Shown: positions 27,725-42,577 of the stretch, piece by piece
Layout: each line of letters starts with the position of its first letter
Position numbering within the stretch: the first letter of the stretch is position 1
Assembly (NCBI RefSeq): GCF_054482595.1
Contig: NZ_CM137008.1
DNA length: 64,000 nucleotides
Reading direction: 5' to 3' (one strand)
Notes under the pieces: generated by a model
The model's input: only the letters and a program-made list of their open reading frames with translations
Database searches by the model: none
What the model was told of the DNA's origin: nothing
Made by a program: the position numbers and the translations under genes

Positions 27725-28810
27725 ATGGCTAGTGTTGATGCAGACTACTGCTACTCGTTTCCGGCTATACGTGGCATTCAGGCAGGCCGCCCCTTCTACA
27801 TTGCCACATGTCCGATGCGTATCATCCCCAAAATTTTTAGCTTTGATGAAAATGATGTTCCTCCGGAGTTGCGCGCGCAACGCACCCTCAATAAATCTCG
27901 CATCCCTGAAATGGTTCGTTATCTTCTTGAAAATCCTAAAGATTATGTATTTTCTGCACTAACAGCATCCATTGCCGTTGACGTCCAGTTTGATGAGTTT
28001 CCCGGCACGAATAATCTAGGGACGTTATGTGTACCAATGGACGCGCAAATCTTGATCAACGACGGTCAGCATCGTCGTAAAGCGATTGAAGACGCTTTAG
28101 ACGCTCGCCCGGAGCTGGGGCAGGATAACATACCTGTGCTGTTTTTTGTCGATGAAGGATTAAAACGCAGCCAACAGATGTTTGCCGATCTGAATAAATA
28201 TGCTATTCGCCCCAGTCCGTCGTTGGCATCGTTGTATGATCATCGGGATGCCAGTTCAAATTTGGCGCGTTATCTGGCAATGTCCGTAGAGCCGTTTGTC
28301 GGAATGACTGAGCTGGAAAAATCCAATATCAGTCAGCGGTCAAATAAATTATTTACGTTAAGCAGCATCAAGCAAGCTACCCGTGCGTTGCTGGGAAAAG
28401 ATCCGAAAAAGAGCGATTTTGAAGAATGTACCCAGATAGCAACTCGCTATTGGCAAGCTATTTATAATGTAATGCCGGACTGGCAATTAGCCGCAAAAAA
28501 GGAAGTTTCACCGGTTCAACTACGTCAGGACTATGTTCACGCTCACGGTATTGGTTTGCAGGCACTCGGACAACTAGGGTATACACTGCTGACAAATTAC
28601 CCAGAGCAGTGGCCTGATAAAATTGCTGCACTCAAAGTGTTTAACTGGCGCAGAAATAATCCGGATCTTATCAAACGTGCGATGCAGCATGGAAAGTTGA
28701 GCAAAACCAGTACGGCAATCCAACTCACCTGCAATGCGCTAAAAAACGCACTCTCAATTCCGCTTACTCCTGAAGAACAGGAGCTTGAAGCCCAAATGGT
28801 TGTCTCATGA
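27725..28810 (+). CDS. dndB: DNA phosphorothioation regulator DndB (DGQHR-motif protein)
   Basis: 361 aa with DGQHR motif (...ILINDGQHRRKAIEDAL...); first gene of the four-gene cluster. Confidence 0.85.
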   Translation: MASVDADYCYSFPAIRGIQAGRPFYIATCPMRIIPKIFSFDENDVPPELRAQRTLNKSRIPEMVRYLLENPKDYVFSALTASIAVDVQFDEFPGTNNLGTLCVPMDAQILINDGQHRRKAIEDALDARPELGQDNIPVLFFVDEGLKRSQQMFADLNKYAIRPSPSLASLYDHRDASSNLARYLAMSVEPFVGMTELEKSNISQRSNKLFTLSSIKQATRALLGKDPKKSDFEECTQIATRYWQAIYNVMPDWQLAAKKEVSPVQLRQDYVHAHGIGLQALGQLGYTLLTNYPEQWPDKIAALKVFNWRRNNPDLIKRAMQHGKLSKTSTAIQLTCNALKNALSIPLTPEEQELEAQMVVS

Positions 28811-30441
28811 GTAAATTAGTTCAGGCCTACGATTTGGCCGAATACACAGATTTTATTAATCAGGAGCAGTTTTCTGGACGCCCTCTGGCCGAATATATTT
28901 CTGAAGTTCAGAGAATTTATTGTGCGGATAAGCGTCCGTGGGTAATTGGCTATAGCGGTGGAAAAGATTCTTCCGCCGTGATCACGCTGGTGTATCTGGC
29001 CCTGCTTGGCCTGCCCCCGGAAATGCGCAACAAAGATGTTTTTGTAGTGTCATCCGATACGCTGGTGGAAACACCAGTGGTAGTAGATTTAATTAAGAAA
29101 ACGATGTTGCAAATTGAGGCAGGCGCAAAGCGTAATGGCCTGCCGATCACTCAACATGCGGTAACGCCTAAAACTAATGAAACCTTCTGGGTCAATTTAC
29201 TGGGGAAAGGTTATCCGGCCCCAACCCGCAGTTTTCGCTGGTGTACCGAACGCATGAAAATCAATCCGGTGAGTGACTTTATTAAAGAAAAGGTCAGCCA
29301 GTTTGATGAAGTAATTGTTGTCCTAGGTTCACGTAGTAGTGAGAGTGCCTCTCGTGCGCAGGTCATCGCAAAGCACAAAATTGATGGCTCACGCTTGGCC
29401 CGGCATACCACACTGGCAAATGCGTTTATCTATACCCCTATTGATACCTGGGATGTAGAAGACGTCTGGAAACTGCTGCGCGGCGCGTTCCGCTATGCTC
29501 CTGAATATATCGACGAATGGGAAAGCCCATGGGGTGGAAACAATCGTCCTCTATGGACGCTGTATATGGACTCTTCCGCACAGGGTGAGTGTCCCTTAGT
29601 GATAGACGAAAGTACCCCCTCTTGTGGGAACTCTCGCTTTGGATGCTGGACCTGTACCGTAGTAACCAAAGATAAAGCGATGGAAAGTCTGATCAAAAAT
29701 GGCGAAGAGTGGATGTCGCCATTGCTGAAATATCGTGATCTGCTGGCGTTTACCACCGATCCGGTGAATAAAGACACCTATCGCAACTATAAACGTCGTA
29801 CCGGTAAGGTGAGCTATCAGTACGCTAAAGACGGTGAAGATCGCAGTGCAGAGCGTAAGCATGTGCCAGGCCCCTACTGGCTCAAATATCGCCAGCAATG
29901 GTTAAAAGACTTACTGGAAATTGAGCGTGATTTAAACGCCCAGGGCCACAGGATTACGTTAATCACCGAGTCGGAACTGCACGCTATCCGCCAAGAATGG
30001 TTGAAGGATCCTAATGAACCAGACTGGTACGACACACTACCAGGTATCTACCGTGAGGTGTACCAGCGGGATCTGGATTGGGTCGTTGACGACCAATCAC
30101 GTTTTGACGCCAGCGATGCCGATTTGCTGGTGCAGATAGCTCAGGGGTTTGATGTTGTGCCAGAGATGGTGATGAAATTGATTGAGCTGGAAGTTTCAAT
30201 GGAAGGATTAAGTCGCCGTCAGGGGATTTTTGACAAACTTGGCACCATTTTAAAACAGGATTGGGGCAGTCTCGAAGAGATTCAACAACAGCAGGCAGCG
30301 CTACAAAAACGTAACGACCGGGATATTCACCAGGAAGAAATCACCAGGCTGGAAGCTGAACTTCAGGTTTTACAACGCAGAATTGTCGATGCCAGCGAAT
30401 CCTCTGTATTGGTCGGCGAGGAAAACGAACGTGCTCATTAA
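28807..30441 (+). CDS. dndC: DndC, PAPS-reductase-like ATP pyrophosphatase with Fe-S cysteines
   Basis: 544 aa; PP-loop SGGKDS; Cys cluster CGNSRFGCWTC; ATGA overlap with dndB. Confidence 0.85.
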   Translation: MSKLVQAYDLAEYTDFINQEQFSGRPLAEYISEVQRIYCADKRPWVIGYSGGKDSSAVITLVYLALLGLPPEMRNKDVFVVSSDTLVETPVVVDLIKKTMLQIEAGAKRNGLPITQHAVTPKTNETFWVNLLGKGYPAPTRSFRWCTERMKINPVSDFIKEKVSQFDEVIVVLGSRSSESASRAQVIAKHKIDGSRLARHTTLANAFIYTPIDTWDVEDVWKLLRGAFRYAPEYIDEWESPWGGNNRPLWTLYMDSSAQGECPLVIDESTPSCGNSRFGCWTCTVVTKDKAMESLIKNGEEWMSPLLKYRDLLAFTTDPVNKDTYRNYKRRTGKVSYQYAKDGEDRSAERKHVPGPYWLKYRQQWLKDLLEIERDLNAQGHRITLITESELHAIRQEWLKDPNEPDWYDTLPGIYREVYQRDLDWVVDDQSRFDASDADLLVQIAQGFDVVPEMVMKLIELEVSMEGLSRRQGIFDKLGTILKQDWGSLEEIQQQQAALQKRNDRDIHQEEITRLEAELQVLQRRIVDASESSVLVGEENERAH

Positions 30442-40923: not shown

Positions 40924-40927
40924 TCCA

Positions 40928-42577
40928 CTAACCCTCCATACCGCTAATGGTGATCATGTCGTCGTCCGCTTTAGCGCGATAAACTCGCCGCCCACCAGCA
41001 TAAAACTTGATTTCGCTGCTGGATTTGGCCTGTTCAGTAATCAAATCAACGATTTCGTCCAGTAGAACAATGGCATTTTTATCGTATTTATTGGGGCGAT
41101 AGCCATTGTTTAATTTGTTCAAAAGTTCAAATAAATTAAGTCCGATACGAACTGGTAACAGAGAGTTTTGCCCAACTTTTAAATGCACGTCGAAGCCAGT
41201 AGGGTGGGCCGTATTTTTATTGCGGATGGCCTCCCAGTCAGGTTTCAATTCGACTGGCGCGGTTATTTTTACCCCACCATATTCACCTAAAAAGAACTCT
41301 TCTTTTTGCATACTCAATTCCGGCGCTTTGCGGTTTGCATAGCGCTGAATACCAGCAATAAGTTCGGATGTATAAAACCGGTTCAGTGCTTTTTTCTGCT
41401 CTGAGTCAGCGATGTAATTTTTGTGCAGATGCCAGATTTCTGAATAATGCTCAAATAAAGATTCATTGAAGAATACGGAAAATTTCTGATGATAATTATT
41501 CCCCAGAGATTCATCCTGCAGCAACCAGAAGAGCCGAATTAATGAAGCCGCATCACCCGGATTAACGCACTGGCGATCAAATCTAATGTGTAATGGCGCG
41601 AGTGCAGCTAAAAAATCATCCAGTTCAGGGTCAACCAGGCCCAATTCGTAGCGCAAAATAAACTGATCGATTTCATAGGTGTGCAGCCTAGCAGGATCAA
41701 AATCAGAAACTTTTTTAATCAGGTCGTTTTCTGCCCCAGTGAAAAGATTATCAAATAAATACCCCGGCCCCATAAGCAAATGATGCAGAAAATCCAATAG
41801 AGTTCGGGTTGTCACAAACTGATCTTTAATCAGGCGGGCCTTAAAGAGCTGAGTGATGAGAACATCCTGAACACCCGGCAGACAAAGTAATTTATAGTTA
41901 GCAACTTCTTTCAGCTCAGGGTTAACGGTCTCATCATGTCGAAAAATAAACTGAAACAAATTACTATCATCATTACGGGTTAAATTATCCAGTAATGTTT
42001 TAATAAACGATGAATACTGTTTTTTTTCATTAAACTGGAATTTAGGGTAATGCTCAAAGTCAAAAAAAGAACAATGCCCACTGCGGTATGGGCGGCTTTC
42101 TTCCTGATCTGCTGACAAGAAAGAATCGATCGCAGTGCGGATCGCCAGATGGCATTCAGCACCTTCTCTGGCAAAATTGGCGAGCATCCCGGTATTGATG
42201 CCTATAAGCAAAGGAGATGAGTATTGGTGATGATTGCTAAATAAATCATTTAAAGCATCAATAGCTGATTGCCGGGGAGCAAAGCTGTGTGTTGCATCCA
42301 GATGAAAACTAAAGCGCTGCTGATAACGAGGGTTTGACTTACAACGGGTCAAAATTTCGGACTTTCCATCACCACTACTGCCACACAAAAAGATGATTTC
42401 ACCGGGCTTAGCAACATCCAGATAACGTTGCAGCTCAGTTTCAATTTCTTGTTTAACAAAGAGTTGTTCTTTTAACTGATCGAACTCATCCTTTTGACGA
42501 TGCGTTACCGTGGTTACGGAAAACGAAGATGACTTCGCAAGTACACCCAACGCTTTACGTAATGTGATTGCGCTCAT
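40928..42577 (-). CDS. dptF: DptF/DndF-like P-loop ATPase
   Basis: 549 aa; Walker A LCGSSGDGKSE near the N-terminus; first gene of the three-gene operon. Confidence 0.6.
   Translation of the reverse strand: MSAITLRKALGVLAKSSSFSVTTVTHRQKDEFDQLKEQLFVKQEIETELQRYLDVAKPGEIIFLCGSSGDGKSEILTRCKSNPRYQQRFSFHLDATHSFAPRQSAIDALNDLFSNHHQYSSPLLIGINTGMLANFAREGAECHLAIRTAIDSFLSADQEESRPYRSGHCSFFDFEHYPKFQFNEKKQYSSFIKTLLDNLTRNDDSNLFQFIFRHDETVNPELKEVANYKLLCLPGVQDVLITQLFKARLIKDQFVTTRTLLDFLHHLLMGPGYLFDNLFTGAENDLIKKVSDFDPARLHTYEIDQFILRYELGLVDPELDDFLAALAPLHIRFDRQCVNPGDAASLIRLFWLLQDESLGNNYHQKFSVFFNESLFEHYSEIWHLHKNYIADSEQKKALNRFYTSELIAGIQRYANRKAPELSMQKEEFFLGEYGGVKITAPVELKPDWEAIRNKNTAHPTGFDVHLKVGQNSLLPVRIGLNLFELLNKLNNGYRPNKYDKNAIVLLDEIVDLITEQAKSSSEIKFYAGGRRVYRAKADDDMITISGMEG

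Follow-up and report, generated by a model that had tools for sequence, protein, structure and literature searches.

The dndBCDE and dptFGH operons

We analyzed a 64,000-nucleotide stretch of DNA (NCBI RefSeq assembly GCF_054482595.1, contig NZ_CM137008.1; hereafter the window), in which a preliminary description made from the sequence alone had placed a phosphorothioate (PT) modification-restriction system, dndBCDE convergent with dptFGH, at positions 27,725 to 42,577. The DNA is Escherichia coli chromosome, and positions 27000–43000 are 100% identical to many RefSeq genomes, in which the genes are named dndB–E and dptF–H. The core genes are as follows.

27725..28810, plus strand: dndB, 361 aa; DGQHR/ParB-like regulator of the modification operon (TIGR03233 and PADLOC DndB)
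28807..30441, plus strand: dndC, 544 aa; PP-loop ATP pyrophosphatase/sulfurtransferase with an Fe-S cysteine cluster (TIGR03183)
30431..32431, plus strand: dndD, probably 666 aa from GTG 30431; SMC/ABC-like ATPase (TIGR03185, RefSeq start)
32431..32787, plus strand: dndE, 118 aa; small DNA-binding subunit (TIGR03184, PADLOC DndE)
34563..39617, minus strand: dptH (dndH), probably 1684 aa from ATG 39617; large restriction subunit with a C-terminal FtsK/HerA-like P-loop ATPase
39598..40923, minus strand: dptG (dndG), 441 aa; DNA-binding subunit of the restriction complex (TIGR03236)
40928..42577, minus strand: dptF (dndF), 549 aa; P-loop NTPase subunit of the restriction complex (TIGR03238, PADLOC DndF)

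We took the curated NCBIfam equivalog cutoffs as the standard of identity and the PADLOC Dnd models as a second library. All seven core proteins score above the NCBIfam cutoffs with essentially full-length alignments, the PADLOC Dnd models concur, and a script check of the seven open reading frames (ORFs) finds no internal stop.

In the modification operon, DndB scores 462.4 bits against TIGR03233 (cutoff 328; NCBIfam model positions 2–354 of 355 aligned) and 583 bits against PADLOC DndB, and a script run on the translation locates its DGQHR motif at residue 113. DndC, a member of the PAPS-reductase-like PP-loop family TIGR03183, scores 543 bits (cutoff 290.4; PADLOC DndC 839) and carries SGGKDS at residue 50 and cysteines at positions 39, 146, 262, 273, 280 and 283, among which C280 is named as a [4Fe-4S] ligand (PMC11662687). 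DndD scores 506.5 bits against TIGR03185 (cutoff 245.85; model positions 2–650 of 650 aligned; PADLOC DndD 1010), with a Walker A motif, GLNGAGKT, at residue 41. DndE scores 77.9 bits against TIGR03184 (cutoff 71.85) and 191.6 bits against PADLOC DndE. The coordinates, motifs and cutoffs thus bear out the preliminary assignment of all four genes.

The restriction genes dptF, dptG and dptH are co-oriented on the minus strand next to the dnd genes, and all three equivalogs pass their cutoffs, so that the earlier recognition of DptF/G/H withstands the profile searches. Specifically, DptF scores 453.9 bits against TIGR03238 (cutoff 50) and 785 bits against PADLOC DndF; DptG scores 309.2 bits against TIGR03236 (cutoff 20; PADLOC DndG 652); and DptH scores 1206 bits against TIGR03237 (cutoff 620.65), with a full-length PADLOC DndH match of 2854 bits. 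The P-loop motifs previously noticed in the first and last of these genes are present, as GSSGDGKS at DptF residue 66 and GTMGTGKT at DptH residue 1345.

Comparison with solved structures covers three of the proteins. DndE is 87.0% identical to the DndE of PDB 4LRV; DptG is 83.9% identical to the DptG of PDB 7EXX across all 441 residues; and the C-terminal 373 residues of DptH, corresponding to the ATPase domain, match the DptH of PDB 7ES4. We matched 7EXX to E. coli B7A DptG through the residue range given in PMC10853773, which reports B7A DndG as 441 residues, the same length as DptG here. PDB sequence searches with DptF, DndB and DndC found no solved relatives, so only DndE, DptG and the DptH C-terminus are tied to structures.

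Two start codons call for revision of the longest ORFs. The longest dndD ORF, 30383–32431 on the plus strand, opens at TTG 30383, and the profile alignment of this long form begins at residue 18; since RefSeq also uses the shorter start, the start is most likely GTG 30431, for a product of 666 aa. Likewise, the longest dptH ORF, 34563–39638 on the minus strand, encodes 1691 aa from GTG 39638, and its profile alignment begins at residue 8; together with the RefSeq start, this makes ATG 39617 the most likely start and 1684 aa the most likely length. The lengths of 549, 441 and 1691 aa given previously are therefore correct as longest ORFs, the last being probably seven residues too long as a protein.

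The genes within each operon are tightly packed and are predicted to be co-transcribed. The ATGA overlap of dndB and dndC and the TGATG overlap of dndD and dndE, both described before, are real; dndC and dndD overlap by 11 nt given the GTG 30431 start. On the other strand, 4 nt separate dptF from dptG, and dptG overlaps dptH by 20 nt given ATG 39617. The two operons converge, as had been stated, with 1.8 kb between them.

The candidate control elements of the cluster are the following.

27624..27691, plus strand: dndB upstream control region, with a promoter-like site and a TACG-N10-CGTA box
42610..42638, minus strand: promoter-like site TAGATA-17-TAGAAT upstream of dptF (consensus scan only)
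32793..32829, no strand assigned: stem-loop between the convergent operons, lying between the stops of dndE and of the DGQHR gene described below (folding)

The window contains a single perfect TACG-N10-CGTA box, at 27674–27691, 34 nt upstream of the dndB ATG. Chance alone would give about 0.5 such boxes in 64 kb, and one at exactly this place is therefore unlikely to be fortuitous. The motif was defined by footprinting as the DndB operator in Salmonella (PMC4507180), and we propose that the box serves here as a putative DndB operator. In addition, a half-site direct repeat, TTACGTAAAAT, is found about 30 nt upstream of the box (region 27643–27691), where it overlaps the −10 element of a promoter-like site, TAGATA-17-TAAAAT, at 27624–27652. 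The promoter calls before dndB and dptF are weak, and matches in the consensus scan are not enriched over shuffled sequence. Between the operons, the segment 32780–32860 folds with −24.8 kcal/mol (z = −5.3 versus shuffles); the 32793–32829 stem-loop has no U-tract on either strand and receives no call in the consensus terminator scan. It may act as a terminator in both directions or as a hairpin that stabilises RNA.

System identity and predicted mechanism

We hold with high confidence that the locus is a canonical E. coli Dnd-type PT restriction-modification system of the 55989 lineage and resides on a mosaic island at the tRNA-Leu gene leuX. The system is already known, annotated in RefSeq and published for a near-identical strain, and this copy adds nothing new on Dnd biology.

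The closest known system is the dnd-encoding genomic island of E. coli 55989 ('dndI_I EC 55989'). The 14,853-bp dndB-to-dptF cluster differs from that of 55989 by 10 single-nucleotide polymorphisms and no insertions or deletions (99.93% identity), and the protein accessions of DndB, DndC, DndE, DptF and DptG are identical. Collinearity extends from 26915 to at least 43734, and both sequences have the tRNA-Leu site, the remnant of an integrase gene and a DGQHR gene with the TGA allele, all described below. They differ to the left of 26915, where the island cargo is an autotransporter gene in the window and, in 55989, small ORFs and a ProQ/FinO-like gene that is intact. Ho et al. 2015 (PMC4373003) found dnd islands of 53–59 kb at the leu tRNA gene in 55989 and B7A, described dptFGH beside dnd as "often separated by 1 to 3 hypothetical proteins", and associated 55989-type dndB–E with a DNA-degradation (Dnd+) phenotype caused by PT.

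Two further systems provide the biochemical reference. The model DndBCDE-DndFGH system of E. coli B7A, represented by the structures 7EXX, 7ES4 and 4LRV, has the same seven genes, the same order and protein lengths (DptG 441 aa) and a leu-tRNA island site, but belongs to a sister lineage (DptG 83.9% and DndE 87.0% identical), and it is for B7A that PT specificity has been measured. The DptBCDE-DptFGH-DndI system of Salmonella enterica Cerro 87 likewise combines modification and restriction genes, uses IscS in trans and has the TACG-N10-CGTA operator. It differs in the slot between dndE and dndH, which in Cerro 87 holds dndI (1,971 bp; a DUF262 protein with DGQQR and an HNH nuclease), whereas the window has a small membrane protein gene and a 386-codon gene for a DGQHR protein with no nuclease domain. 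DndI of Cerro 87 is a PT-sensing nickase co-transcribed with dndFGH (PMC11662687).

Among 5,426 complete E. coli genomes, dptF-dptG is found in 224 (~4%), in 116 of them at at least 99% identity. In a divergent E. coli group, whose relation to B7A is unconfirmed, dptFG is only about 78% identical at the nucleotide level.

By transfer from the published B7A and Cerro 87 homologues, the mechanism of this copy would run as follows. The housekeeping cysteine desulfurase IscS, encoded elsewhere, would hand persulfide sulfur to DndC, and the DndCDE complex would then install PT, which in studied relatives occupies a subset of GAAC/GTTC sites. IscS can substitute for DndA in E. coli (PMC6435447). DndB would bind TACG-N10-CGTA boxes in the operon promoter and repress it. 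Finally, a DptF/DptG/DptH complex with nickase and translocase activity, as described for DndFGH (PMC11662687), would damage incoming PT-free DNA.

Several points weigh against this assignment as a working system. Neither dndA nor iscS lies in the window, the RefSeq annotation of 50 kb around the cluster lists no cysteine desulfurase, and the iscS locus is outside the window, so that we assume a sulfur donor encoded at another locus. With no linked dndA, IscS is needed in trans and the system is complete only together with the core genome; the earlier term 'complete' thus holds for the seven intact genes but not for the sulfur donor. PT in the DNA of this strain is itself a prediction. The proteins are only ~84–87% identical to the biochemically studied B7A proteins, which makes the GAAC/GTTC specificity an extrapolation for this lineage. 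Moreover, the accessory DGQHR gene is broken, and whatever it contributes at intact loci is lost here.

A rival reading is that the genes are present in a functionally decayed system, a modification-only or silent remnant on an island ridden with insertion sequences (IS). The island is indeed crowded with IS fragments and pseudogenes, the DGQHR protein 1 gene inside the cluster has a nonsense mutation, and an integrase remnant adjoins dptF. However, each of the seven core genes is intact and matches its profile over the full length, the cluster is kept at at least 99% identity in more than 100 E. coli genomes from many hosts, and 55989-type operons are linked to the Dnd+ phenotype (PMC4373003). 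We therefore regard decay as very unlikely.

It can safely be discounted that the three large genes belong to another defence family with Dnd-like parts (Ssp, Pbe, MADS or the 7-deazaguanine system Dpd): PADLOC does return secondary matches of PbeC to DndD (829 bits), mad7 to DptG (466), mad8 to the DptH C-terminus (61) and SspD to DndC (44), and DpdB matches DndB at 27 bits, but the Dnd models always score higher (DndD 1010, DndG 652, DndH 2854, DndC 839), the DpdB match is far under its cutoff of 300, and the order dndBCDE plus dptFGH is canonical for Dnd. A methyltransferase is expected in MADS systems, and the RefSeq annotation of 50 kb around the cluster contains neither a methyltransferase nor sspABC or pbeABD partners.

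The top-scoring PADLOC names for DndC, DndE and DptF are 'Type II methyltransferase' or 'Type II restriction enzyme', with full-length matches of 1261, 225 and 1192 bits, respectively. We reject a methylation reading of these labels, which probably come from mislabelled models built on near-identical Dnd proteins; automated pipelines could accordingly misreport a dnd/dpt locus as a Type II restriction-modification system. In practical terms, the strain probably has PT-modified DNA, from which one would predict smearing in pulsed-field gel electrophoresis, a changed redox sensitivity of the DNA and restriction of plasmids and phages that enter the cell unmodified.

The two genes between the operons

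The 1.8 kb between dndE and dptH contains two genes, both co-oriented with dptFGH.

32846..34006, minus strand: DGQHR gene, 386 codons; pseudogene of TIGR04172, 'DNA phosphorothioation-associated DGQHR protein 1'
34007..34525, minus strand: small membrane protein, 172 aa, with about four hydrophobic segments (4-TM)

The 172-aa gene begins 37 nt past the dptH stop and is coupled to the DGQHR gene through TAAATG. The preliminary description had called this region an extra insert; there is DNA between the operons, as it said, but the pair is a conserved cassette of the dpt operon rather than an insertion. The order dptF-G-H, small protein, DGQHR protein 1, convergent with dndBCDE, recurs in Yersinia (71% identity), a metagenome contig (52%), Vibrio (45%) and Marinobacter (44%), and also in the divergent E. 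coli lineage (L011), where the DGQHR gene is intact. In Shewanella, a deltaproteobacterial metagenome-assembled genome and Spirosoma, a small ORF precedes DGQHR protein 1 beside dnd-related genes. In the copies compared, the small 4-TM gene always stands directly before DGQHR protein 1 and after dptH. Its copies in relatives are the following.

L004 9425..9997: small-protein gene in Vibrio
L005 9444..10004: small-protein gene in a relative
L007 9487..9999: small-protein gene in a relative
L011 7419..7958: small-protein gene in the divergent E. coli lineage

Base composition might seem to favor an unrelated, recent low-GC insertion, as the cassette has 31–33% GC versus 42–48% in the dnd and dpt genes. 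However, the cassette lies 5–11 GC points under the adjacent dptH in each of three other genera measured. Being low in every genus measured, the GC content is a property of the cassette and no sign of recent insertion. Such an insertion is further contradicted by the recurrence of the pair after dptH in other genera, and by the placement of the DGQHR protein in a curated PT-associated family restricted to PT genomes, a distribution noted in 2011 (PMC3226654). An unrelated recent insertion is thus highly improbable, and the gene order and composition indicate that the cassette is a conserved two-gene tail of the dpt operon.

The DGQHR gene belongs to the TIGR04172 family (a model of ~381 aa) and adjoins dnd/dpt genes, and the copy in the window is a pseudogene. 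An in-frame TGA at codon 102 (33701–33703) splits it into fragments that cover TIGR04172 positions 1–97 and 103–381, scoring 115.8 and 338.8 bits, respectively, against a whole-protein cutoff of 450. In strain NDM3, codon 102 is GGA (Gly), there is no other amino-acid difference, and the gene is intact; RefSeq annotates this allele as the TIGR04172-named protein. The gene in the window is therefore broken by one G-to-T change that turns the Gly102 codon GGA into the stop codon TGA. Probing with a 63-nt sequence, we found the TGA allele in 106 of 124 cassette-bearing E. coli genomes, the other 18 differing by one base, and in most of these 18 an intact protein is annotated. The fragment holding the DGQHR motif lacks its own canonical start codon, for which reason the copy is best called a pseudogene. 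RefSeq names the fragments inconsistently ('DndB', 'ParB N-terminal domain' or 'DGQHR domain'), some with non-canonical starts.

We considered whether the TGA could be a normal, recoded feature of the gene. Homologues of 36–91% identity and similar length are uninterrupted at this position, and the E. coli allele differing by a single base reads GGA, which makes a point nonsense mutation the simpler explanation; recoding was therefore rejected. Low-level readthrough of the codon-102 TGA may occur.

The DGQHR gene was also tried as a candidate DndI and rejected on its length, its motif, the missing HNH domain and the lack of a match to PDB 9JFL. DndI (PDB 9JFL) is a protein of ~650 aa in which a ParB-like N-domain bearing DGQQR is joined to an HNH nuclease at the C-terminus, features that the DGQHR protein does not have, and comparison of the two proteins gives no detectable sequence or fold match.

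The 172-aa protein and its homologues match no NCBIfam or PADLOC family. RefSeq labels it 'AgrB family', and we do not accept this name: the match to Pfam AgrB (PF04647) is weak and partial, 23.6 bits across the hydrophobic segments, and is probably an artefact of composition. A GIW(I/V)..P motif is common to the small proteins, and those from enteric bacteria, Vibrio and Marinobacter also end in a similar tail of the form (D/G)EPGxG(L/I).

What the comparisons show for the pair is conserved order, family membership and fold. We entertain, with more doubt than belief, the tentative idea that the small 4-TM protein and DGQHR protein 1 form a conserved third arm of Dnd systems. In such an arm, a ParB-like NTPase might monitor PT status and pass a signal to an effector in the membrane; alternatively, the arm may be a second regulator. 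Genome annotation has catalogued the cassette since ~2011; our literature search found no functional study of the cassette or the DGQHR protein, the mentions of DGQHR together with phosphorothioation being bioinformatic. If there is a third arm, a single nonsense mutation would have removed it from most E. coli of this lineage, the window included, and a minority would still have it intact. The cassette is the only loose end of the locus, and the natural intact and nonsense E. coli alleles allow a direct comparison.

In Vibrio panuliri, the slot after dptH also holds a gene for a ScoMcrA-like 'phosphorothioated DNA-binding restriction endonuclease' (L004 8449–9318; NF045808, 373 bits). The Vibrio endonuclease and Salmonella DndI suggest that varying accessory effectors with a relation to PT occupy a slot at the 3′ end of dpt operons.

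Island context at leuX

The preliminary description regarded the system as island cargo, and the surroundings agree: a tRNA-Leu(CAA) gene with a P4-type integrase beside it lies on the dptF side, and IS debris is present in the flanks.

47379..47463, minus strand: tRNA-Leu(CAA), island attachment site (ARAGORN)
45927..47192, minus strand: P4-type tyrosine integrase of the leuX island (NF007246, 260.6 bits; RefSeq)
42801..42966, minus strand: integrase remnant beside dptF, former border of the dnd-dpt module (annotated in identical DNA as a partial integrase with a frameshift)

Leftward from the tRNA-Leu gene and its integrase gene, which is intact, lie an outer-membrane protein gene (Adr/OmpW-like), a CptA/EptA-like phosphoethanolamine transferase gene, the integrase remnant and then the dpt/dnd cluster, beyond which are two autotransporter genes, IS3/IS66/ISL3/IS1 debris and metabolic cargo. 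In the divergent E. coli lineage (L011), a near-full-length integrase gene (annotated as frameshifted) and tRNA-Leu stand directly beside dptF. This arrangement, in which dptF abuts the leuX integrase, explains the remnant next to dptF, a second element having later entered between the tRNA and the dnd module. The window thus shows tandem accretion of two elements at leuX (42801–42966 and 43139–47192). A search of the window for a repeat of the tRNA-Leu 3′ end, the expected mark of the distal boundary, found none; either the island extends past the window or the repeat has been lost.

Of the two autotransporter genes, both on the minus strand, one (7595–11092) encodes 1165 aa and is AIDA-I/MisL-like, and the other (24187–26874) encodes 895 aa. 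The latter ends where collinearity with 55989 ends (~26915), cutting the ProQ/FinO-like gene.

At the left end of the island DNA, 369–6164 encodes a fumarase/aspartase-family lyase, a MurR/RpiR regulator, a DcuC C4-dicarboxylate transporter and an NAD-malic enzyme, and this metabolic module is inverted relative to strain YZLc23-1. YZLc23-1 also carries a ~2.3-kb group II intron (ltrA) within an IS3 element (L001 10753–13015), which the window, otherwise identical here, lacks (23114–23122).

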